The notes under the pieces were generated by a model. That model saw nothing but the letters and a program-made list of their open reading frames with translations, was not told the origin of the DNA and made no database searches. Made by a program: the position numbers and the translations under genes. Positions 1,157 to 23,446 of a DNA stretch of 64,000 bases are shown piece after piece. The stretch lies in NCBI GenBank assembly GCA_963743615.1, contig CAVUQF010000003.1, positions 60,999-124,998 on the forward strand, written 5' to 3'. The number at the start of each line of letters is the position of its first letter. Position 1 is the first letter of the stretch. This DNA is from an uncultured Nanoarchaeota archaeon (GTDB lineage: Archaea > Nanobdellota > Nanobdellia > Pacearchaeales > GW2011-AR1).

Positions 1157-2484
1157 CAACTGTTGAAAAACTAAAGAAGTATTTAGATGAAATAAAGAAA
1201 AATGATAAGCAAGGAAGCAAGATAAATGCCTTTTTGCATCTGCAGGATGAAAAAGAGTTGTTAAGGGAAGCAGAAGAGATTGATAAAAAAATGAAATCTG
1301 GAAAAGCGGGGAAGCTTGCAGGTAAAATTATTGCTGTAAAGTCTAATATAAATGTTAAAGGATTGATTGCTTCATGTGCGTCCCATGTTCTTGAAGATTA
1401 TAAGGCTCCTTACAATGCCACAGTCATTGAGAAAATTAGGAAAGAGGATGGGCTGATAATTGGCATGACAAATATGGATGAATTTGCTTCCGGAAGCAGT
1501 GGTGAAACCTCCGCATTTGGCCCAATAAAAAATCCAGTAAATTTAGAATTAATTCCAGGAGGTTCTTCAAGTGGGAGCGCCGCTTCAGTTGCAGCGGGTT
1601 TTTGTGATATGGCTTTGGGAAGTGATACAGGAGGAAGTATCAGGAATCCCGCGTCGCATTGCGGTGTTGTAGGAATAAAACCCACATATTCTTCTGTTTC
1701 AAGATATGGACTTATTGACTTGTCGATGAGTCTTGATCAGATTGGAACTCTTGCAAAGAATGTATCTGAAGCAGGTTTGTTATTGAGTGTTATAAAAGGA
1801 AAAGATGAAAGAGATTCAATATCCCAAGATTCTAAGGAAATTAATTTTGATGAAGTTGAAAGGATTTCCAAGAATTTTACGGTAGGTGTTTTAAATTTTG
1901 AATTGCAGAATAAGGAAATACAAAACCTAATTTTAAATAGAATAAATGAAACGGCTAAGAAGCATAATTGGAAAGTCGAAAATGTGACTATTAAAGATAT
2001 TGATTTAGCTATTGAAACTTATTATCCTCTTGTTTATGTAGAATTTTTTTCAGGGACAAGAAAATTTGATGGAAGAAGATATGGAAAGAAAATTGAAGAT
2101 GCTGCTGGAGAGGAAGTGTTAAGAAGGATTCTGGGGGGAAGTGAGATTTCCAAGGAAGAATATGGGAGTAGATATTACCAGATGTCTTTGAAAATCAAAA
2201 ATTTGATTGAAAAAGAGTTTTCTGAAATTTTTAAAAAAGTCGATTGCATTATTTCTCCTACTGTTTCAAAGTTGCCCCATAAAATAGGAACAAAAATTTC
2301 TGTGAAAGAAATGTATGAATATGATGCTTTGACGACTCCCTCCAACCTTGCTGGAAATTGTTCCATAAGTATTCCTGCAGGAAAGATTGGCGGAGTCCCT
2401 ATAGGAATGCAAATTATGTGTGACAAATTTCAAGAACAAAAGATGCTCCAAATTGCTAGAATGTTTGAGAAATCTTATTATTAG
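1153..2484 (+). CDS. gatA: Glu-tRNA(Gln)/Asp-tRNA(Asn) amidotransferase subunit A (amidase family)
   Basis: Amidase signature 'GGSSSGSAASVAAGFCDMALGSDTGGSIRNPASHCGVVGIKPTYSSVSRYG'; 443 aa. Confidence 0.85.
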   Translation: MTTVEKLKKYLDEIKKNDKQGSKINAFLHLQDEKELLREAEEIDKKMKSGKAGKLAGKIIAVKSNINVKGLIASCASHVLEDYKAPYNATVIEKIRKEDGLIIGMTNMDEFASGSSGETSAFGPIKNPVNLELIPGGSSSGSAASVAAGFCDMALGSDTGGSIRNPASHCGVVGIKPTYSSVSRYGLIDLSMSLDQIGTLAKNVSEAGLLLSVIKGKDERDSISQDSKEINFDEVERISKNFTVGVLNFELQNKEIQNLILNRINETAKKHNWKVENVTIKDIDLAIETYYPLVYVEFFSGTRKFDGRRYGKKIEDAAGEEVLRRILGGSEISKEEYGSRYYQMSLKIKNLIEKEFSEIFKKVDCIISPTVSKLPHKIGTKISVKEMYEYDALTTPSNLAGNCSISIPAGKIGGVPIGMQIMCDKFQEQKMLQIARMFEKSYY

Positions 2485-2529
2485 TTGTAGATAATAATCT
2501 TTAAAAATGAACTTCTGTTTTTTAGGATT

Positions 2530-3210
2530 ATGGATATTGGGGGAGTTAAGCTGGAATGGCTTGGACACGCTAGTTTTATGATAAAAAGTTTTGAAGGTAA
2601 GGTAATTTATATTGATCCTTATTTAATAAGTGAAAGTCTAGAAAAGGCGGATCTAATTTTAATAACTCATAGTCATCCTGATCATTGCAGTGTTGCAGAT
2701 ATAAATAAAGTAATAAAATCTAACTCAAGAATCGTTATTACTGCAGATTGCCAAAGTAAAGTTGTCAGAACAAATATTCCAATAAAAATTGAGATTACAG
2801 AACCAGGCAAAGAATTTGACTTTGGAAAAATAAGGATTTCAACAATTCCTGCTTATAATCTTACTAAGACCTTTCATCCAAAAAGTGAAGATTGGGTAGG
2901 TTATATAATCAAAGTTGATGGTGTTACAATTTATCACGCGGGAGATACAGATCTTATTCCAGAAATGCAAAAGCTTACAGGATATAAAAAACAGGGAACA
3001 GAATTTGTGGCTCTTCTTCCAATAGGAGGAAGGTATACTATGGATGTGGAAGAGGCATTAGAAGCGGTTAAGACCATAAAACCAAGTATTGTTATTCCAA
3101 TGCATTATGGCAACCAAATTGGTTCTCTTGAAGATGCAAAAGAATTTGTCAGATCTTGTGAAGAAGAAGGAATTAATGCAAAAATTCTCGAAATATTTAA
3201 CTCAAATTAA
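2530..3210 (+). CDS. Metallo-beta-lactamase-fold hydrolase (UPF0173-like)
   Basis: 'ITHSHPDHCS' HxHxDH metal-binding motif; 226 aa. Confidence 0.75.
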   Translation: MDIGGVKLEWLGHASFMIKSFEGKVIYIDPYLISESLEKADLILITHSHPDHCSVADINKVIKSNSRIVITADCQSKVVRTNIPIKIEITEPGKEFDFGKIRISTIPAYNLTKTFHPKSEDWVGYIIKVDGVTIYHAGDTDLIPEMQKLTGYKKQGTEFVALLPIGGRYTMDVEEALEAVKTIKPSIVIPMHYGNQIGSLEDAKEFVRSCEEEGINAKILEIFNSN

Positions 3211-3380: not shown

Positions 3381-3413
3381 TCAAAAAATTTGAAAGGAGG
3401 AAAAAAACAAAAG

Positions 3414-4499
3414 ATGGTACTAGACTTTGCAAAAGAAGCAATAGAAAATGCTGCTACTCATTCCATTAATTTTGATGACTTAAAGGCAGGAAAGGCAAAT
3501 ATCAAAGTTATTGGTGTTGGTGGATGCGGATGTAATACAGTAACATGGCTTTTTAACAAAGGTATTAATGGAGCAACTGTTTATGCAGTTAATACTGATG
3601 CTTTACACTTAAGTGTTACAAAGGCAGATGAAAAAGTTCTTATTGGAAAGGAATTGACAAGGGGACTTGGTGCAGGGGGTATGCCTTCAAAGGCACGTGA
3701 AGCTGCTAAAGAAGCTATTGTTGAGTTGAAAAAGGCTGTTGCCGGAGCAGATATGGTATTCGTTCTTGGCGGAATGGGTGGAGGTACTGGAACAGGTGCT
3801 GCACCAGTTGTCGCACAACTTGCAAAAGAATCAGGAGCTGTTGTTATTGGGGTTGTTACAATGCCTTTTGAAGCTGAAAAAGCAAGAATCGACAAAGCTG
3901 AGTTTGGTTTACAAGAGCTTAGAGAAACAACGGATACTACAATTGTTCTTGACAACAATAGACTTGTGGACATCGCAGGCCAACTTCCAATTGAAGCAGC
4001 TTTTGCTGTTGCTAATGAACTGGTCAGTACAATGGTAAAGGGAATTGTTGAAACAATTACTCTTCCAAGTTTAATTAACTTGGATTATGCAGATGTCTCT
4101 GCTATTATGAAAAATGGCGGAGTAGCTGTTATCGGAATTGGGGAGAGTGACTCTTCATCCCACAGAGTAACTGAAGCTGTTCAGCAAGCACTTACGAATC
4201 CTCTACTTGATGTGGATTACAAGGGTGCTACTGGAGCATTGATTCATGTTACATGTGGACCTGATTTGAAACTTGAAGAATTCGATACCATTGGAAGGAC
4301 TGTTTCAGAAAACTTGAACAATGAGGCAAATGTCATCATTGGAGCAAGAATCAATAAAGAATTCCAGGGAAAAGTTAGAGTTATTACAATTATGACTGGT
4401 GTTAAGTCTCCTTATGTGCTGGGAAGAGATGCAGATGAGGAGAGGAAGATTCCAGCTGCAAGGGAAATGTCTGACTTGGGAATAGAAGTTTGGAGATAG
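3414..4499 (+). CDS. ftsZ: Cell division protein FtsZ
   Basis: 'GVGGCGCNTV' and 'GGMGGGTGTGAAPVVAQLAKE' tubulin/FtsZ GTP-binding signatures. Start placed at the ATG at 3414, which follows GGAGG; an upstream in-frame ATG at 3390 is an alternative. Confidence 0.9.
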   Translation: MVLDFAKEAIENAATHSINFDDLKAGKANIKVIGVGGCGCNTVTWLFNKGINGATVYAVNTDALHLSVTKADEKVLIGKELTRGLGAGGMPSKAREAAKEAIVELKKAVAGADMVFVLGGMGGGTGTGAAPVVAQLAKESGAVVIGVVTMPFEAEKARIDKAEFGLQELRETTDTTIVLDNNRLVDIAGQLPIEAAFAVANELVSTMVKGIVETITLPSLINLDYADVSAIMKNGGVAVIGIGESDSSSHRVTEAVQQALTNPLLDVDYKGATGALIHVTCGPDLKLEEFDTIGRTVSENLNNEANVIIGARINKEFQGKVRVITIMTGVKSPYVLGRDADEERKIPAAREMSDLGIEVWR

Positions 4500-4534
4500 A
4501 AATCAAACAAAAATAAAATTAGTTTATTTGGTTG

Positions 4535-8856: not shown

Positions 8857-9210
8857 TTAGAATTCAGATGTTTCGTCTTTTAGATATCCTTCTTTTTTCA
8901 GCCAAGCAATCTGGTTTAGCCTGTATTTTAAGATAATGTCTGCCTTTTCTTTATCAAATTCCCATGGTTTTACAATGACAACATCTCCAGGACGTAACCA
9001 TAATTCTCTTTTCAATCTTCCTGGCACTCTACAATTCCTCGTTTTTCCATCAAGACAATTTACCATCATCTTATTTCCTCCTAATCTTTGTTCAACGATG
9101 CCAATGATTTCATCACCTTTTGGAAGAGGAGCTCTTGAGATGCTTTCTTGTTCTACTTCTCCACTTTTACCTTTGTTGAATTTCTTTCTTTCCATATTAT
9201 GATAAATCAC
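8857..9210 (-). CDS. eif1a: Translation initiation factor 1A (aIF-1A)
   Basis: S1-like OB fold: 'GKTRNCRVPGRLKRELWLRPGDVVIVKPWEFDKEKADIILKY'. Confidence 0.8.
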   Translation of the reverse strand: MIYHNMERKKFNKGKSGEVEQESISRAPLPKGDEIIGIVEQRLGGNKMMVNCLDGKTRNCRVPGRLKRELWLRPGDVVIVKPWEFDKEKADIILKYRLNQIAWLKKEGYLKDETSEF

Positions 9211-9247
9211 CGAGATGGGGATTTATAAAATTAAGTAATTGAATTTT

Positions 9248-9544
9248 TCACAATAATATCATAGTAAAGGGAATTCCTTGGATCTTTTTTACGCCTTCTT
9301 CCAGGACTATTCCTTGCTTTATTGCAAGTGCGACAGACTCTTTCCCAACTATGTTGAAGGTTGCATCCTCTCGAACCATTTTTTTTATTATTACAGAGGC
9401 TTCTTCTTCTGAAAGTTCTTCTCCTTTGTAAAAACTCTCTTTAACATCTAGTTGAAATGTTCCTTCTTCAAATTTCTTACCAATCAGTTCGGAGTCACAT
9501 ATTGCGACAATGTCACGGTGTGATCTTATGATTTTAACGAGCAT
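9248..9544 (-). CDS. Conserved hypothetical protein (98 aa)
   Basis: Intact ORF tightly packed between aIF-1A and a small Zn-ribbon gene. Confidence 0.4.
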   Translation of the reverse strand: MLVKIIRSHRDIVAICDSELIGKKFEEGTFQLDVKESFYKGEELSEEEASVIIKKMVREDATFNIVGKESVALAIKQGIVLEEGVKKIQGIPFTMILL

Positions 9545-9546
9545 TC

Positions 9547-9714
9547 TTATTTGATTTGTTTAGCTTGTTCTGCAGATAGGATCTTTGCCATATTTGTTCC
9601 GCATACAGCGCAGGTTCCTCTTGCCATGAAAGTTCCTCTGCTTGTCTTTTCTAACTTAACATTTTTCATTTCTCTCGATTCTTTACACTTCATACATCTT
9701 CCTTCTAGGGCCAT
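9547..9714 (-). CDS. Small zinc-ribbon protein (55 aa), absent from the ORF track because it is shorter than 60 aa
   Basis: Hand translation gives MALEGRCMKCKESREMKNVKLEKTSRGTFMARGTCAVCGTNMAKILSAEQAKQIK, with CxxC...CxxC. Confidence 0.4.
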   Translation of the reverse strand: MALEGRCMKCKESREMKNVKLEKTSRGTFMARGTCAVCGTNMAKILSAEQAKQIK

Positions 9715-9781
9715 TTTTTAACCTCCTTTGGTTTTTATTATGTTTTATTAGAAATTTTCTAGTTTTTTAAAGATTCTTATT

Positions 9782-10189
9782 TTATATTTTGCTTACGGGA
9801 CGTTTTGCTCCACATGCAAGGCAATGAATAAAAGTCATTCTGTCATCTTTTATTAACTCCGTGTCTGGTTTTCCACACTCTTTGCATAGCACAAATTCTC
9901 TTACATATACTTCGATTTTTTGATTAATTTTTGCACTTGGAACTTTTTGATTTAAAACTAATCTATCTCCCTCAATTTGCCCAGAGGATGCAAGCTCCTT
10001 CAGCAAAAATTTCTGAAAATGCTCCGGGTTTCTTCTTATATATGATGCTATCTGAAAAAAATTTGTTAATACTGTTTTCTTTCCCTCAAAGTGTCCCTCT
10101 ATTTTTGGAATTTCAAATCTTTCGCCATTTCCTTCTGGTTTTTTTATTTTTTTGAATGCATCTTCAAGTAGCTTTTCATAGGATTCCAT
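9782..10189 (-). CDS. eif2b: Translation initiation factor 2 beta subunit (aIF-2 beta)
   Basis: C4 zinc ribbon 'CKECGKPDTELIKDDRMTFIHCLACGA' and the eIF2beta/eIF5 domain. Confidence 0.8.
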   Translation of the reverse strand: MESYEKLLEDAFKKIKKPEGNGERFEIPKIEGHFEGKKTVLTNFFQIASYIRRNPEHFQKFLLKELASSGQIEGDRLVLNQKVPSAKINQKIEVYVREFVLCKECGKPDTELIKDDRMTFIHCLACGAKRPVSKI

Positions 10190-10254
10190 GATCTAGTTGT
10201 GGCAAGATAATTTATAAATGTTTTATAAGTTTAGCAGTATAATTTCGGGAAAGC

Positions 10255-11499
10255 TTAGAAGGAACCTGCAGGATACATTTGCCAAGAATTTCCTCCAGGG
10301 CATTCATAAGTGCCCCAACTTGAGGGGTCTGTTGCTTGCCAAATGCAATAATAGGAGTATACTGCACACCCAACTGGTCCTTTTGAGCTATATCCATTAG
10401 AAATTCCCCAATAAGTTCCATCGTTCTTGCAATATTCATATGTAACTCCGTTATTTGTTACACTACTTGTGCCGAAGGGGCAATTGGAGCAATCTGATCC
10501 AGACCATCCTTGACAATTCCCTGAGCCATCACAAGTTTCATCTGTACCGCAAGTTGTTCCTCTTGATAAATCGGAACTGGCACTTCCACTACATGTTCCA
10601 TCGCATCCGATTGTTTTTCCACCACAAATATCGCTTCCACAACTTTGTCCTAGATTAGAAGCGCAACATGAATATCCTTCATTAAGATCACCTTCTGGAG
10701 GGGGGAAATCATAAGAATTACCCCCTGCACAAGTCTTTCCACTTCCGCATGTTCCGCAGTTCAGAGTTCCTCCGCATCCATCACTAGACGTTCCACATGT
10801 ATCAACTAACTCTGAGCAGGTGTAACATGAACTAACACAATTCCCTGAGCCGTCACAGGTTGCATCTGTACCGCAACTTGTTCCTACTGATACATAAGAA
10901 GTTTCAGTACATGACCCATCACAAGCTGTTTTTCCATTGGTACAGGCATTTACCTGACAAGGGTTTCCCATATTAAAACTACAACAATTACCTCCCGCAT
11001 TACAACTCATCCCACTTCCAGTGCAAGTTCCACAAGTTCCTCCACATCCATCACTTCCACAATTTTTTCCAGTGCAGTCCGGAACACAGCAATAAGTTTT
11101 GCTATTGATTGCTTGTTGCAGACTTTCTCCCGATGCTAAATTAATTTCTGTAGCCAGATGACTTGGATTTGGAATGTTTACACTAGTGTAAGTTAATGGA
11201 CTAGAAGGATTGGGACAAAGCCTGTCTGGTGATTGTAGAGCTGAAAGAAGAGTCATTTCTCCATCCTTCACAGAAACCCAAATTTGGCTTGCATCATGTC
11301 CGGGATCAGGAGCAGTTCCTGCGGTATAAACATGAGTTTGTCCTAGAGTGCTAGATGTTATAGAGTTCAAATTTGTTGAAACTCCATCAATGCCCACAAC
11401 GACTTGATCTGCGGGGTGAGTTCCAGATGCGCTAATAAAAGTTATAAAGACAGAGACTAGCACTAAAGAAATTATCAGTATCCCCCTTTTATGGCTCAT
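10255..11499 (-). CDS. Secreted Cys/Gly/Thr-rich repetitive protein (414 aa)
   Basis: Signal peptide, then an N-terminal domain of roughly 150 aa, then more than 60 Cys in repeated modules (CGSDGCGGTCGTC, GTSCGTDATCDGSGNC, GTTCGTDETCDGSGNC). Confidence 0.6.
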   Translation of the reverse strand: MSHKRGILIISLVLVSVFITFISASGTHPADQVVVGIDGVSTNLNSITSSTLGQTHVYTAGTAPDPGHDASQIWVSVKDGEMTLLSALQSPDRLCPNPSSPLTYTSVNIPNPSHLATEINLASGESLQQAINSKTYCCVPDCTGKNCGSDGCGGTCGTCTGSGMSCNAGGNCCSFNMGNPCQVNACTNGKTACDGSCTETSYVSVGTSCGTDATCDGSGNCVSSCYTCSELVDTCGTSSDGCGGTLNCGTCGSGKTCAGGNSYDFPPPEGDLNEGYSCCASNLGQSCGSDICGGKTIGCDGTCSGSASSDLSRGTTCGTDETCDGSGNCQGWSGSDCSNCPFGTSSVTNNGVTYEYCKNDGTYWGISNGYSSKGPVGCAVYSYYCIWQATDPSSWGTYECPGGNSWQMYPAGSF

Positions 11500-11540
11500 G
11501 AAGATTATGACACCTTTTGACTTTTAATTCTTTTCTATTT

Positions 11541-12164
11541 TTATCCAAGATATCTTACTTTTCCGGGTCGGGGCTCAAATATGATTCCCTCTTCCAAAAA
11601 TTTTTGAATTTCTTGATTTATTATTTCTGCAGAAGTTTCTCTGTGGGCCATTATTATTTTGTCAACATAGACTCCCCCCTCTTCTTCTGACTTCTTTATA
11701 TCTTCCAAGATTTTGTCCCTTATTGATTCTTGTTGGCCTAAATTCTGAATTTTTGCAACCGGTGTTAATTTTTCAAGTTCTATCTTTCTTACAAGAAGAT
11801 ATTTAGGATCCTGAATTCTTACAATCTCTGGGGAGATGTAAACCTCATTATTGAAATTTCTTAAAACTCCTATAGTCACGATAGTCTGTCCTTGACTTAA
11901 ATTTTCTAGCCTTTCAATGTCATCCCCAAATGCTTTTATTTTTATTTGTCCAGATCCATCATCAAGCGTAAGGAAAGAGTATCTCTTCTCTCCTGTGCTG
12001 TCATATTTTTCTATTACGTTTCCAATAATATTTACTCTTATAATCCTTTTATCTCCTAATTCCAAGAATATGAATTTATCTGCTTCCATAATTGGCTTTC
12101 CAACTAGCAAATCTCCTATCCTTAACTTGTACGCGATGTTTCTTTTGAAATCTTGTTGTGCCAT
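11541..12164 (-). CDS. OB-fold protein, RPA2 (RPA32)-like with a C-terminal winged helix
   Basis: Central OB-fold pattern and a wH-like C-terminus; immediately downstream of mcm. Confidence 0.4.
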   Translation of the reverse strand: MAQQDFKRNIAYKLRIGDLLVGKPIMEADKFIFLELGDKRIIRVNIIGNVIEKYDSTGEKRYSFLTLDDGSGQIKIKAFGDDIERLENLSQGQTIVTIGVLRNFNNEVYISPEIVRIQDPKYLLVRKIELEKLTPVAKIQNLGQQESIRDKILEDIKKSEEEGGVYVDKIIMAHRETSAEIINQEIQKFLEEGIIFEPRPGKVRYLG

Positions 12165-12245
12165 GATTATATTTTTGCTAACTCTTGATTTATTATATCT
12201 CTTATAGATCTGTCTCCTGTTTCTTCTGATAATAATGGTTTCATT

Positions 12246-14291
12246 TTATATCTTCTGGATAAATCCTTGTTTGGGTTTAAATATAATACTGTTCTTTTCT
12301 AATTCTACTAAAGCATCCTCTATCTCACTTTGACTCATTCTATCTCCCAATTCTTTTTCTATTTCTTCTACAGGAATCATCTTCCCGATTTTTCCTTCAA
12401 GTTCTGAGATAATATCTCTTACTGCAAAAACTTTGTTCCTTTGTGAAGAGGTAATTCTGCTGCTAATTCTGTCAATGTCAAATGTTTTTGATTCATAATC
12501 ATATCCAACTTGCATAAGATAGTATTTCATAAGGTCAATGGCCCTTTTTGCATCTTCTTTTGTGGCGACTCCACTTAATCTTAATTTTGCAGAAGCTTCT
12601 GACATTCTTATTAGTGCCTCAAGTTGTCTTGCGGATATTGGAATGGGTCTCATTGCTCCTTCTGAAGCTATTGGAGTATTCCTTAATTCAACGTAAAATT
12701 TTTCTATCTCTTTCATTGCTTCCTGATTCAAAAGGGGTTTTATTTTTTGTCTTGCATATGCAATATATTTCCGGATAATACTTGTAGGAATAAGTGTTTC
12801 TGAAGATTCACTTTTTGTATGTTCATACAAAACATGCGCTGCGATTTTTTGATCTTTATCTCTATCGGGGATATCTCTTAATGTAAAAATAATGTCAAAT
12901 CGGTTTATCAGTGTTGGGGGTAGATCAATTTGCTGTGCAACGGGCTGATATGGATCGAACCTTCCAAATTTGGGATTTGCGGCTGCCAGAACGGAGGTCT
13001 CACTTCTTAATGTAGCTTGAATGTTTGCTTTTGAAATTGTAATCGTTTGTTGTTCCATGGCCTCGTGCATTGCACTTCTATCTTGGGGATCCATTTTTTC
13101 CAATTCATCTATACATATTATTCCTTTGTTTGCAAGAACCATTGCTCCCGCTTCAAGACTCCATCCTCGCAAATATTCATCCCTAACTACGGTAGCAGTT
13201 AATCCTGCACCGGATGCCGATTTTCCAACAACATATCTCCCTTTTGGAGAAATATCTGCAATATAACTTAGTGTTACTGATTTTGCGACTCCTGGATCAC
13301 CTATTAGCAATATATGAATATCCCCTCTCTTTTTTTGACCATCTGCGTATATTTTTCTTACTCCTCCAAATAACTGCAAAATTAGCGATTTTTTTATTTC
13401 CTCATAGCCCCAGACTCCTGGAACTATACTTTTTGCAAGATTATCAAATAAGTTAGGATCTTGCGATAATTCTATTATCTGCCTTTCATCTTCTTCAGAG
13501 ATATCCAATTCTTCAAAAGTTTCTTCCAAAGAGATTATATTATTTGTCTCAATTGCCAGTTCAAATCTTGTGGATACTCCTCCCCCCTGAAGAGGAACAG
13601 GAACTTCCTTCAAAACACCTATTACTTTTACTCTGCTTCCCGGTGTTGTTTTTTCTTCCATTTTTGGCTCAACTAAGTCCTCTTTTACAAAAACATTTAT
13701 TCTCTTGGGTTGTTCTCCTCCAGAAAGAGACTCGGGAGTTTCTTCTATTACTAATCTTTGCGTATCAACCATTTCTTTAGTTAGGAGTTTAAAACCTCCT
13801 CTTCTGCCGCAGGAACATCTCATTGGTTCTCTGAATTTTTTTTCAATTTGCAAAACAGAAAGTATTGTTCCACATGAAGGGCATTCAAATTTTGCATTTA
13901 CTACCTGTGGACGAACATCGGAAGATTGTTTTATTATTCCTTCCAAAATTATAAGTTCATCAAGATGTTTTGAACGGAGATCCCTTATTTTTAAACTTTG
14001 AGACTCTGGTAGATTGGTAAGTCTTACTCTTGGTTTGTTTATTAATCCTGACTCCTCTATTGCTATTTCAATAAGACTTAATGTTTCCTCAGGGGTTGCA
14101 AGAATTTCATCAGATAATTTATTTGAAAATTCAGTAATTTTCATAAAATCAAGGAAAATAACGTTATTTCCTTTTCTTATTGATTCTCCTAGCTCTTTTT
14201 TGTAGAAATCAAAGAAATTCTTTGCCTCAATAACAAGTTCATCCCTATTTGATTTTTTTGGCTCTCTTTTCTCTTCAATCTCTTCTTCCAT
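12246..14291 (-). CDS. mcm: Replicative helicase MCM
   Basis: Walker A 'GDPGVAKS', 'IDELEKMDPQDRSAMHEAMEQQTITISKANIQATL' (Walker B to sensor region), and Zn motif CPSCG...C..C. Confidence 0.9.
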   Translation of the reverse strand: MEEEIEEKREPKKSNRDELVIEAKNFFDFYKKELGESIRKGNNVIFLDFMKITEFSNKLSDEILATPEETLSLIEIAIEESGLINKPRVRLTNLPESQSLKIRDLRSKHLDELIILEGIIKQSSDVRPQVVNAKFECPSCGTILSVLQIEKKFREPMRCSCGRRGGFKLLTKEMVDTQRLVIEETPESLSGGEQPKRINVFVKEDLVEPKMEEKTTPGSRVKVIGVLKEVPVPLQGGGVSTRFELAIETNNIISLEETFEELDISEEDERQIIELSQDPNLFDNLAKSIVPGVWGYEEIKKSLILQLFGGVRKIYADGQKKRGDIHILLIGDPGVAKSVTLSYIADISPKGRYVVGKSASGAGLTATVVRDEYLRGWSLEAGAMVLANKGIICIDELEKMDPQDRSAMHEAMEQQTITISKANIQATLRSETSVLAAANPKFGRFDPYQPVAQQIDLPPTLINRFDIIFTLRDIPDRDKDQKIAAHVLYEHTKSESSETLIPTSIIRKYIAYARQKIKPLLNQEAMKEIEKFYVELRNTPIASEGAMRPIPISARQLEALIRMSEASAKLRLSGVATKEDAKRAIDLMKYYLMQVGYDYESKTFDIDRISSRITSSQRNKVFAVRDIISELEGKIGKMIPVEEIEKELGDRMSQSEIEDALVELEKNSIIFKPKQGFIQKI

Positions 14292-19590: not shown

Positions 19591-20205
19591 GTGAAAAAAA
19601 GTTCGTTGTTCACACTTTTATTTGCAATTAACAGTTTTATTCTGCCTTCTTTAGCAAGGGCTCCGCCAATGTCTGATTTGCCCCCTTTAGCTTATGAAAC
19701 TGGGCCCACATACGGTGGAGCTATTGAAAATTTTGTAAATGAGAAGAAAAACGAGGATTTTTTAAATTACAAGATTTATAATTTTAATAGCGATAGTGAT
19801 GATAGACTTTTGGCTAGGATGATCTTTGGAGAAGGGGAAAGTCTCAGCAGGGCGGAAAAAATCGAGATTGCCTATACAGCCATCCATAGGGTTGAGCAAG
19901 GGTATGATAAAAGTCTTAGAGGGGCTATACTCCGTCTTGATCAGTATTCTTGCTTTAATGAGGGTACAGATAATTCTATTTTCTTGAAGGACCCTCTAAG
20001 ACACAATCCGAAGGAGTTTTTTGCATCCTTAGAAATTGCGATAGGGATTTTGGAAGGTAAAATCAAAGATCCTAAGGATGGCGCAACTTATTATTATGAT
20101 CCTAAAGTGCTTAAGACTCCTCCAGAATGGACAAAAGGCTTAGAAGAAATCAAGAGACCTGGCTTTCATCATAGATATTATAAGGAGCGAAGGCTTAGCG
20201 CTTAA
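19591..20205 (+). CDS. Secreted cell-wall (peptidoglycan) hydrolase, SleB/Hydrolase_2 family
   Basis: GTG start, signal peptide, and 'LLARMIFGEGES...AIHRV...QYSCFN...GATYYYDP...HRYYK', collinear with the SleB domain. Confidence 0.65.
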   Translation: MKKSSLFTLLFAINSFILPSLARAPPMSDLPPLAYETGPTYGGAIENFVNEKKNEDFLNYKIYNFNSDSDDRLLARMIFGEGESLSRAEKIEIAYTAIHRVEQGYDKSLRGAILRLDQYSCFNEGTDNSIFLKDPLRHNPKEFFASLEIAIGILEGKIKDPKDGATYYYDPKVLKTPPEWTKGLEEIKRPGFHHRYYKERRLSA

Positions 20206-21394: not shown

Positions 21395-23446
21395 TTGGTA
21401 AAAATGAGGAAGATAATTTTTAGTTTGGTAATTGTATTTTCGTTGGTGTTCTTTTCTCATTCGGTTTTAGCTCTTCCTTCTTTTAATTCTCCACTTAATA
21501 GCATATACAACCTTGGAGATTTTGCTAATACTTCTTTGACTATTGATCAAGGCGGCAATTTTTCGGTGAATTTAATTTGTAATGGTGTTACCGAAAGGTT
21601 GAGTCCTCCCATCTTTGCCAGTCTGCCATCTATGAATATGCCCCCTATTCCTATACAGTTACAATTGACTTCTAGTCTCGTTGGGGCTAATTCCACTTCA
21701 TGCCAGTTGGAAGCTTCATTAAATGGGAACGCTATTTCTTCAAATGTTTTTCAAGTTTCAAACTTAGTTCAGGTTACAGTTTCTTCCAATGATACAGAGT
21801 TTAAGCCAGGAGATCAAGTTTCTATTCAAGGTGATGCTGTGAAAGTAAATGGACAGAGTCTTAATGGCATCGTTGGTTTGAATGTTTTAGGTCCAGGAAA
21901 CACTTCAATCTATCAAATTTCTAACTCGGTAAGTAACGGATATTTCTCATTTAATTTCTCTCTTCCTTCGGAGATTGCTGCAGGGCAGTATTTTGTTGTT
22001 TTGAATGCATATGAAACAGATCCATCTGGAGCTGAAACGAATGTTGGCTATTATAATTTTAATATACTTGTGGATCAAGTACCAACTAGCCTTAATTTGG
22101 TTCCTCAGAATACTGTTCAGAGCATCTCTCCCGGGCAAGGATACAGTGTTGAAGCCATTTTGTACGACCAGACTGGACAGGAAATGAATTCACTTGTCAA
22201 TTTCACGATAAATGAGACGAACGGGGGAATTATGCGTCAACAGGTAAGCACGGGGCAGTTTATTGAGATTCCTGTTAGTTATAATGATGCTCCGGGCACG
22301 TGGACAGTTTTTGCAAAGTCTAATAATCTTGATTCCCAGTTGAGCTTCGGGGTCTTAGAAAATAAAAATATTACCATCTCTGTACTGAATAGCACACTTT
22401 TAGTAACTAATGAAGGCAATGTTCCTTACACTGACCCAATTACAGTTAATTTTGGAAATCAATCTCTTGTCTTCAATGTTTCGCTAGGGGTCGGGCAGAG
22501 TCAAAAATATGTTTTAAATGCACCTAATGGAGATTACAATGTTGAAGTATCTAGTCTTGGAAGCAATTTATATTCTGGAGATCTATTCCTTACTGGAAAT
22601 GTTGTGAATGTCCAGCAGGCTTCGAAAGGAGTAGTAAGTTTTGTTCAATATCCCCTTGTTTGGATAGTTCTTATAATTATTTTGGTTGTGTTGATCTTCT
22701 TTTTCCTCAAGAAGTTGTATAAGAAGAAGTTCATGAGAAAGATAAACTTGAATAAGAGTTTTAAGTTAAGGGATGGAATTGTGATTAGCGAGGGGAAAGA
22801 TACTAGTTCAAATGGTCCTAAGTTTGTGAACAGCAGGAATGTTGCTGAACTTTCGCTATCTTTACAGGGGACTAAACACGGTTCAACTATTGTCTGCTTG
22901 GGAATAAGAAATTTTGCCGAGATAAAATCTGGGAAAGGAGGGGTAAACGAGACTATGAATAGGATAAGATCCATTTCAGACGAATTCAAGGCAGCGGTTT
23001 ACGAAAATGGGGCAAATATCTTCCTGATCTTTTCTCCAATGAAGACTAAATCTCAAAATAACGATTTAACTGCAATAAAGGCTGCAGAGCAGATTCAGAG
23101 AGTTTTACAAGACCACAACAAATTACTAAAGCAGAAAATAGACTTTGGAATTTCCATACATTATGGGATGATTGTTGCAAAGTTAGGAGTGAACAGCATG
23201 AAATTCATGAGTTTGGGCAATGTGATTTCAACAGCAAAGAAGCTTGCAGCCATCTCTCAAGGGCAAGTTTTCCTTAGTAAAGAAGTTAGGGATAGAATTG
23301 CCACAGATGTTAAGACTGAAATGCATTCCAGCGGAGATATGAGTTACTACACTCTTCTTGAAATAAGAGATAGAGAGAAAAATCAGAAATTCATCAAAGA
23401 TTTCATGAATAAAATGGATAAAGAAGAGAAAGAGAACAAATCTTAA
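21395..23446 (+). CDS. Surface protein (683 aa) with an N-glycosylation-rich ectodomain, one TM helix, and a cytoplasmic nucleotide-cyclase (CHD/GGDEF palm)-like domain that is probably catalytically degenerate
   Basis: Signal peptide; many N-x-S/T sequons; TM 'LVWIVLIIILVVLIFFFL'. The C-terminal 'STIVCLGIRNFAEI ... IDFGISIHYGMIVAKLGVNSMKFMSLGNVISTAKKLAAISQGQVFLSKEV' is collinear with the class III cyclase consensus but lacks the metal-binding Asp residues. Confidence 0.5.
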   Translation: MVKMRKIIFSLVIVFSLVFFSHSVLALPSFNSPLNSIYNLGDFANTSLTIDQGGNFSVNLICNGVTERLSPPIFASLPSMNMPPIPIQLQLTSSLVGANSTSCQLEASLNGNAISSNVFQVSNLVQVTVSSNDTEFKPGDQVSIQGDAVKVNGQSLNGIVGLNVLGPGNTSIYQISNSVSNGYFSFNFSLPSEIAAGQYFVVLNAYETDPSGAETNVGYYNFNILVDQVPTSLNLVPQNTVQSISPGQGYSVEAILYDQTGQEMNSLVNFTINETNGGIMRQQVSTGQFIEIPVSYNDAPGTWTVFAKSNNLDSQLSFGVLENKNITISVLNSTLLVTNEGNVPYTDPITVNFGNQSLVFNVSLGVGQSQKYVLNAPNGDYNVEVSSLGSNLYSGDLFLTGNVVNVQQASKGVVSFVQYPLVWIVLIIILVVLIFFFLKKLYKKKFMRKINLNKSFKLRDGIVISEGKDTSSNGPKFVNSRNVAELSLSLQGTKHGSTIVCLGIRNFAEIKSGKGGVNETMNRIRSISDEFKAAVYENGANIFLIFSPMKTKSQNNDLTAIKAAEQIQRVLQDHNKLLKQKIDFGISIHYGMIVAKLGVNSMKFMSLGNVISTAKKLAAISQGQVFLSKEVRDRIATDVKTEMHSSGDMSYYTLLEIRDREKNQKFIKDFMNKMDKEEKENKS

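Follow-up and report, generated by a model that had tools for sequence, protein, structure and literature searches.

What does a fast-evolving, cysteine-rich gene do in the midst of the housekeeping genes of an uncultured archaeon? The gene in question lies in a 64,000-nucleotide stretch of DNA from a member of the Nanoarchaeota (GTDB order Pacearchaeales; GenBank assembly GCA_963743615.1, contig CAVUQF010000003.1, positions 60,999 to 124,998 of the forward strand), and this whole stretch is called the window. The open reading frame (ORF) reported earlier in a sequence-only reading of the window was verified on the minus strand at positions 10255-11499, where an ATG start is followed by a 414-residue protein and a stop codon. 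That reading had also described the product as secreted, repetitive and cysteine-rich, a description supported by the present analysis, and could assign it to no known family. The protein very probably belongs to a family of secreted modular proteins that share one N-terminal domain, here called the N-domain. It may further be a modular surface or attachment protein, with the N-domain as its head, the cysteine region as a spacer and a C-terminal domain that would contact a ligand; judged from the sequence, this proposal is given an even chance.

The family was delimited by scoring an N-domain profile against 1.84 billion representative proteins. Matches were obtained in 431 clusters at E<=1e-3, of which 251 remain at E<=1e-10 and 55 at E<=1e-30. 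The query itself scores E 1.6e-45, and in the family comparison its domain extends over residues 26-138. Among the matches listed (140 members), the domain starts at a median residue of 26, directly behind an apparent signal segment. The majority of members are metagenome proteins without a named source, and all named members but one are labeled Nanoarchaeia, Woesearchaeota or Pacearchaeota. Relatives in species-representative genomes come from metagenome-assembled genomes (MAGs) of a 'Candidatus Nanoarchaeia archaeon' (locus L003) and a 'Candidatus Woesearchaeota archaeon' (locus L004). The sole named match outside the DPANN archaea (Diapherotrites, Parvarchaeota, Aenigmarchaeota, Nanoarchaeota and Nanohaloarchaeota) is weak (P0254, E 9e-13), is labeled Methanococcoides sp. 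SA1 and sits on a 569-kb contig that may be a mixed assembly. As the earlier reading had it, the protein matches no established family: searches of Pfam, NCBIfam and PHROGs with the whole protein returned nothing significant, and searches of PDB sequences with the whole protein, two N-domain profiles and a profile of the first cysteine module (module A) returned chance-level matches only. Pfam gave no clear match to a characterized family such as metallothionein-like or EGF-like proteins. The N-domain by itself matches nothing in Pfam, NCBIfam, PHROGs or PDB sequences, and the corresponding region of other family members has no Pfam match. A published description of the family was not found in literature searches.

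The N-domain carries very different C-terminal parts, or tails, in different members. A Pfam scan of 135 members identified, after the N-domain, TSP1 repeats in 20, BNR/sortilin propellers in two, Hint or pre-toxin-HINT-like modules in two, and He_PIG, Big_9, Lcl_C and Gly_rich_2 domains in one each. The Pacearchaeota protein PIO07627.1 (P0219) has an almost complete Gp38 domain, a phage tail-fibre adhesin, at residues 174-391, directly after the N-domain (Pfam E 9e-21; PHROG tail-fibre family E 3e-32). The scan thus identifies the N-domain as a constant head on exchangeable, mostly binding-type tails. Among 140 members with tails of at least 40 residues, 102 tails contain at least 8% cysteine, 23 end in a W-x-I-K-P-like motif and two have a C-terminal hydrophobic anchor. 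The binding modules found on the same head (TSP1, BNR/sortilin, He_PIG, Big_9, Lcl_C and Gp38) support an attachment function. Where the sequence-only reading had left adhesin, metal-binding protein and toxin-like protein side by side, a disulfide-stabilized adhesin fits best, given the TSP1, Gp38, BNR and Ig-like tails of the family, whereas the metal-binding and toxin-like options gained no positive support.

The N-domain comprises 113 residues preceded by a 24-residue signal segment, and not the approximately 150 residues first estimated. AlphaFold2, run on the domain alone with 46 sequences, returned a predicted local distance difference test (pLDDT) value of 91.7 and a predicted template modeling (pTM) score of 0.86; the domain reaches a pLDDT of ~90 in the full-length model. 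It consists of three homologous units of ~38 residues (GH-x-A-x-x-I ... TLQxAI), each modeled as a beta-hairpin between a short turn at H-x-A and a short helix. Alignment of the units with hhalign gave a probability of 98.3% and E 2e-14 for units 1 and 2, E 6e-12 for units 1 and 3 and E 1e-11 for units 2 and 3, with unit probabilities of 97-98%. The unit consensus is pGH-x-A-x-x-I-x-V-x-V-dG-x-E-x-T-L-Q-x-A-I-x-x-G-x-F-C. Residues H28, H68 and H114 hold equivalent positions in the three units and are conserved in 80%, 141/141 and 92% of 141 family domains, respectively. In the same set Q128 is invariant, I131 is present in 140 domains, and C95 and C137, each ~90% conserved, probably form a disulfide. 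A Foldseek comparison of the full-length model with the PDB, a check that the sequence-only reading had proposed, yielded nothing significant (best E 1.4), and it is possible that the fold of the N-domain is new. A histidine-brace or amino-terminal copper and nickel (ATCUN)-type metal site at the N-terminus was considered and dropped, because the distance from the first histidine to the predicted cleavage site varies in the family.

The protein contains 40 cysteines (9.7% of its residues), so that the earlier count of more than 60 was too high by half. None lies in the signal segment and one in residues 25-136; 33 lie in residues 137-329, which also hold four CxxC motifs, and six in the last 85 residues. 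The cysteine region (residues 137-329) consists of two copies of a 108-residue pair of modules, A and B. Its first half aligns with its second at z = 12.4 relative to composition-preserving shuffles, and comparisons with shuffles likewise gave z = 12.1 for the local alignment of B1 with B2 and z = 6.0 for A1 with A2. At the DNA level, a 64-nucleotide repeat at 10513-10576 and 10837-10900 is 86% identical with a spacing of 324 nucleotides, equal to 108 residues, and repeat D6 in module A2 is 95% identical over 21 nucleotides. The four motifs that were quoted earlier as imperfect tandem modules are all present, arranged as an (A-B)x2 duplication (z = 12). Repeat detection, another check proposed there, was performed with shuffle-tested alignments and hhalign and shows both the A-B duplication and the triple repeat of the N-domain. 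These two features, and the bacterial spread of module A described below, were absent from the sequence-only reading.

Module A follows the consensus CxPxCxGKxCGxDGCGGxCGTCxxGxxCxxxGxC, which has 13 invariant positions: eight cysteines at fixed spacing together with P3, G11, G14, G17 and G20. Residues 138-172 have every invariant column. The second copy (residues 235-257) is degenerate and keeps only the core CG..DGCGG..CGTC. The C-terminal 85 residues include 9 Tyr, 5 Trp, 13 Gly and 6 Cys, in agreement with the Tyr/Trp/Gly-rich module noticed earlier, and are modeled by AlphaFold2 as seven beta strands with pLDDT ~45-70. A profile of this domain matches 25/238 collected sequences, all 25 of which also have the N-domain, and relatives usually end in W-x-I-K-P. 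In some other members a conserved 'VICTELY...' domain of ~120 residues, which has no Pfam match, substitutes for it (L013 at 1769-3178, P0013, P0014, P0015, P0020 and P0053). Three of these (L013, P0013 and P0014) have a membrane anchor at the C-terminus behind the 'VICTELY' domain, an arrangement that implies a distal N-domain. The coordinates of all parts of the window protein are collected in Table 1.

Table 1. Parts of the cysteine-rich gene and of its product, by residue and by position in the window
Feature	Residues	Window position	Strand	Basis
Complete coding sequence		10255..11499	-	ORF list; near-identical cluster representative in public metagenome assemblies
Signal peptide (predicted), MSHKRG / ILIISLVLVSVFITF / ISA, cut before S	1-24	11428..11499	-	Sole hydrophobic segment
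N-domain, family-defining	25-137	11089..11427	-	Profile matches; AlphaFold2 model
N-domain repeat unit 1 (H28-P-A-D-Q-V ...)	27-66	11302..11421	-	hhalign; AlphaFold2 beta-hairpin and short helix
N-domain repeat unit 2 (G-H68-D-A-S-Q-I-W-V-S-V-K-D-G-E-M-T-L-L-S-A-L)	67-112	11164..11301	-	hhalign
N-domain repeat unit 3 (S-H114-L-A-T-E-I ... S-L-Q-Q-A-I)	113-138	11086..11163	-	hhalign
Cysteine module A1 (CCVPDCTGKNCGSDGCGGTCGTCTGSGMSCNAGGNC)	137-172	10984..11091	-	All 13 invariant consensus columns matched
Cysteine module B1 (CSFNMGNPC...GTSCGTDATCDGSGNCVSSC)	173-225	10825..10983	-	B1 versus B2 alignment
Cysteine module A2 and Pro/acidic linker	226-277	10669..10824	-	A1 versus A2 alignment; DNA repeat D6
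Cysteine module B2	278-329	10513..10668	-	B1 versus B2 alignment; 64-nucleotide DNA repeat
C-terminal aromatic-rich beta domain (GWSGSDCSNCPFG ... SWQMYPAGSF)	330-414	10258..10512	-	AlphaFold2; profile

The N-terminal segment begins with the basic residues MSHKRG, continues with 18 hydrophobic residues and closes with I-S-A before a serine. It contains the only hydrophobic stretch of the protein, with a Kyte-Doolittle maximum of 2.65 at residues 6-24; a second hydrophobic segment, a lipobox or a C-terminal sorting signal was not found in the protein sequence. Residues 1-24 would thus act as a Sec signal peptide that is cut by signal peptidase I, and the signal peptide of the earlier reading is retained as a predicted Sec-like segment. 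A class III (pilin-type) signal, defined by a [KR]-[GA] cleavage site and then a hydrophobic helix retained after processing, was considered as the alternative, since K-R-G-I-L at residues 4-8 of the query would fit it. This motif is absent from many relatives (e.g. MNRNRKKRYVIF... and MKRGKNLLL...), whereas a signal-peptidase-I-like (I/V)-x-A site is kept at the end of the segment in all of them, and the conserved (I/V)-(S/N)-A motif directly before the N-domain favors the Sec signal over a type IV pilin-like reading.

Module A is widespread and not confined to archaea. A regular expression for it gave 188 matches (overlaps counted; 187 distinct sequences) in 51 collected proteins, with up to 9 per protein. 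Most of these proteins are unlabeled, and the few with organism labels are bacterial (Myxococcales, Polyangiaceae and Deltaproteobacteria). Accompanying domains include TIG, polysaccharide deacetylase, trypsin, CBM, GH8, peptidase M4/M43 and F5/8-type C domains. No Pfam model for module A was found, and a PDB profile search with it returned nothing. In bacteria (Myxococcota and others), tandem CxPxCxGKxCGxDGCGGxCGxC modules likewise follow signal peptides and stand beside binding or enzyme domains, and module A appears to act as a generic disulfide-rich extracellular spacer of bacterial secreted proteins. The bacterial arrays hold up to 9 repeats joined to enzymes or TIG domains, whereas the window protein has two copies of module A that alternate with module B and are joined to a DPANN-specific N-domain. 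The analysis delineates two sequence sets for which no Pfam model was found, namely the DPANN family of triple-repeat N-domains and the cysteine module with CGxDGCGG.

The gene has a fixed place in the genome. It is flanked in the window (8857-14291) by genes for MCM, an RPA-like OB-fold protein, aIF2-beta, DUF424, aIF1A, a NUDIX protein and a KH protein, and the MAG locus L003 shows the identical order (MCM, OB-fold, gene, aIF2-beta, DUF424, aIF1A, NUDIX, KH). Comparison of 19 related loci (L003-L021), of which 8 lack any flanking marker, places the gene in 11/19 within the block L15e, DNA ligase, TBP, MCM, RPA (OB), aIF2-beta, DUF424 and aIF1A, reading in the same direction as its neighbors. 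Three slots are used. TBP and MCM enclose the gene at eight loci, although the number of independent genomes behind these is smaller, with a single sequence common to L005, L006, L015 and L016. MCM and RPA enclose it in L007, and its neighbors in the window and in L003 are RPA and aIF2-beta. The tails encoded at the syntenic locus between TBP and MCM are wholly different between genomes, and include TSP1-like repeats, cysteine modules with a W-x-I-K-P end, the 'VICTELY' domain with membrane anchor and an acidic tail.

Rates of change were estimated between the window and the L003 ortholog as ratios of nonsynonymous to synonymous substitution rates (dN/dS), with dS ~1 for all genes compared. 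The six neighbors gave dN/dS values of 0.013-0.10: MCM (95% amino acid identity, dN/dS 0.025), the OB-fold protein (91%, 0.048), aIF2-beta (95%, 0.032), aIF1A (95%, 0.013), KH (87%, 0.062) and DUF424 (74%, 0.10). The cysteine-rich protein shares 57% identity at a dN/dS of 0.34, which separates into 68% and 0.21 for the N-domain and 51% and 0.45 for the remainder. It is the fastest gene in the block by dN/dS, exceeding its neighbors ~3-26x. The L003 ortholog (306 residues) is shorter by exactly 108 residues (324 nucleotides), that is, by one A-B pair. No second copy of the gene is present in the window. A near-identical sequence in public metagenome assemblies is the cluster representative P0001 from ENA contig ERZ25039473:contig_106971, which differs from the window protein by the single residue change A389T (window 10333-10335, minus strand), so that the window is a very close variant of this contig and not identical to it.

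These features suggest how an attachment protein of this kind might be built. After cleavage, the mature N-terminus would be the compact domain of three beta-hairpin and helix units, the constant part of the family, which would most likely dock the protein at a conserved part of the cell's own envelope or oligomerize it. The 193 middle residues, with 33 cysteines in two A-B pairs, would then form a stiff spacer braced by disulfides, the length of which could shift by gain or loss of whole 108-residue units. The aromatic-rich C-terminal beta domain would be the exposed, fast-changing end that touches a ligand on another cell or surface.

Several observations weigh against this proposal. As far as the sequence searches reach, no part of the window protein is covered by a homolog of known function, and its own tail matches no binding-domain family in Pfam, NCBIfam or PDB sequences. 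The protein has no membrane anchor or known sorting signal that would account for its retention at the cell, and it could be released. The two relatives with a C-terminal hydrophobic anchor would place the N-domain at the distal end, opposite to the polarity proposed. Model confidence is low throughout the cysteine modules and the C-terminal domain (pLDDT 25-70), and the disulfides are assumed to form outside the cells of a probably anaerobic organism. Finally, since dN/dS stays below 1, relaxed constraint is as compatible with the rates as diversifying selection.

By analogy with known systems, the protein would work most like modular receptor-binding and adhesion proteins that combine a constant attachment part with variable tips. 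The phage adhesin Gp38 (PF05268) shares this logic, in that a conserved N-terminal part precedes a variable Gly/aromatic-rich distal binding part, and P0219 is the only relative that matches it. The window protein matches neither PF05268 nor a PHROG; its gene is chromosomal and stands in a housekeeping block whereas Gp38 is viral, and its tail is cysteine-rich where Gp38 has a polyglycine sandwich. Surface proteins with TSP1 repeats are likewise extracellular and use small disulfide-stabilized repeats for adhesion, and such repeats sit in place of the cysteine modules in the 20 family members noted above. The TSP1 models PF00090, PF19028 and PF19030 do not match the window protein even at E<=10, and neither module A nor module B has the W-x-x-W / C-S-x-x-C-G signature. 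It is therefore a member of neither the Gp38 nor the TSP1 family, whose models do not match. A broader resemblance is to cysteine-rich variable surface proteins, such as the variant-specific surface proteins (VSPs) of Giardia, and to furin-like and laminin-EGF repeats, which have ~10% cysteine, CxxC motifs and fast-evolving ectodomains outside the cell. However, Pfam models for EGF-like, laminin-EGF and furin-like repeats gave no match at E<=10, and the window protein differs from Giardia VSPs in having no transmembrane anchor and in occurring as one copy per locus and not as a switching gene family.

The strongest competitor to an attachment protein is a structural component of the envelope, a rigid disulfide-rich part or decoration of the cell wall or S-layer under weak constraint and with no specific external ligand. 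It is considered unlikely. An apparently single-copy, vertically inherited gene in a housekeeping block with dN/dS below 1 would suit such a role, as would a cysteine module that serves as a generic spacer in bacteria, but the tails found on the same N-domain are typically ligand-binding and include a phage receptor-binding adhesin. Moreover, S-layer proteins are usually larger and glycosylated, while glycosylation sequons are avoided here: the mature protein (10258-11427, minus strand) has 0 N-X-S/T sequons against 6.0 expected from shuffles (P ~2e-4), and 159 family proteins together have 251 against 584 expected. This depletion would be consistent with selection to keep an exported protein free of glycans. 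If the protein were only a structural part of the envelope, its interest would be modest.

A bolder version of the attachment proposal, improbable on present evidence, takes the N-domain to be a new fold that forms a single-chain pseudo-trimer, with the three repeat-initial histidines as a metal site, and to serve as a universal plug of the Nanoarchaeota that fits interchangeable receptor-binding cassettes (cysteine modules, TSP1, the phage-type Gp38 adhesin and propellers) onto a conserved surface structure. If this were true, the locus would be a host-range determinant of episymbionts, analogous to the tip of a phage tail fibre.

Two other functions are each rated as quite unlikely. In the first, the protein would bind or sequester metal outside the cell, either through its cysteine clusters (CxxC and CC) or through the three repeat-initial histidines of the N-domain. 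The density of 33 cysteines in 193 residues with four CxxC motifs, and the equivalent, conserved positions of H28, H68 and H114 (80%, 100% and 92%), are what such a function would lead one to expect. The signal peptide, the fixed cysteine spacing with conserved Gly, Asp and Pro, the overall cysteine content and the role of the same module as a spacer in secreted enzymes of the labeled bacteria argue otherwise, as does the lack of a match to any metal-binding family in Pfam or NCBIfam. Metallothioneins are small cytosolic proteins with 20-30% cysteine in C-x-C / C-C clusters and few aromatic residues. The window protein resembles them only in its clustered cysteines, and differs in its 414 residues, signal peptide, 9.7% cysteine, 28 aromatic residues and conserved structural Gly and Pro; no metallothionein family in Pfam or NCBIfam matches it.

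The second, given the same low probability, is a secreted effector similar to polymorphic toxins, in which the N-domain would serve export or delivery and the variable C-terminus would act on a host or competitor. A conserved N-terminus with a hypervariable C-terminus at a fixed locus recalls that arrangement, and Hint or pre-toxin-HINT-like modules do occur in 2/135 family members; however, the commonest tails in the family are adhesion modules, and Pfam and NCBIfam identify no toxin or enzyme domain in the window protein. Nor does a conserved immunity-like gene lie downstream, where the window has aIF2-beta, L003 an opposite-strand HAD-like ORF and L005 an unrelated 201-residue ORF. A polymorphic toxin is defined by a C-terminal toxin domain and an adjacent immunity gene, neither of which was found, and by its defining features the protein is likewise no metallothionein or EGF-type repeat protein.

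The local rise in G+C content noticed earlier was confirmed, at 0.42-0.44 in the gene against 0.30-0.37 across most of the window (~34% overall); as possible causes, codon composition and foreign origin had been suggested. The protein is rich in Gly (14.7%), Ser (14.3%), Thr (10.1%) and Cys, with an isoelectric point of ~4.05 for the mature form. G+C at codon position 2 is 0.60, compared with 0.27-0.35 in five neighboring genes, whereas G+C at codon position 3 (GC3) is 0.248 in the gene and 0.23-0.30 in those neighbors. Because the excess sits only at position 2, the patch reflects Gly, Cys, Ser and Thr codons and not foreign DNA; of the two options the first holds, and the second fails on native GC3 and synteny. 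A comparable G+C bump (0.40-0.42 over 3501-4500) occurs at the FtsZ gene (3390-4499). Horizontal acquisition or viral descent is thus very improbable and was rejected on codon-position G+C and synteny, since the raised local G+C relative to ~0.34, the far greater abundance of module A in bacteria and the one family member with a phage Gp38-like domain are set against a GC3 like that of the neighbors, a position and orientation kept within the housekeeping block in 11/19 related loci, no relatives in IMG/VR viral contigs and no PHROG match for the window protein.

The majority of DPANN archaea have not been cultured, and those in culture need contact with a host cell; to our knowledge, the proteins by which they recognize hosts are largely unknown. 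With its fixed locus, conserved head, swapped tails and fast evolution, the unannotated gene offers a candidate for host or surface recognition in Woesearchaeales and Pacearchaeales. Models for two domains, the triple-repeat N-domain and the CGxDGCGG module with its wide distribution, are apparently missing from the libraries searched.

Beyond the flanking block, the window encodes ThrRS with an archaeal editing domain, TyrRS/TrpRS, PheRS, PolB, Cdc48, Lhr, a topoisomerase and FtsZ. These archaeal housekeeping genes, together with the named relatives of the protein, assign the window to a DPANN archaeon similar to Nanoarchaeia and Woesearchaeota. Just downstream of the cysteine-rich gene, a canonical archaeal TATA-like box (TTTATAAA) lies ~27 nucleotides upstream of the aIF2-beta start (window 10190-10254, minus strand), which suggests transcription of aIF2-beta from a separate promoter, with almost no leader. 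On the plus strand, a 204-residue ORF at 19591-20205 contains a SleB-type Cell Wall Hydrolase domain (PF07486, E 9.5e-8), a member of a peptidoglycan-directed enzyme family here encoded in a DPANN archaeal genome. A 683-residue ORF on the same strand, at 21395-23446, contains an MG2 (alpha-2-macroglobulin-like) / Ig-like domain, and its product may be another surface protein.

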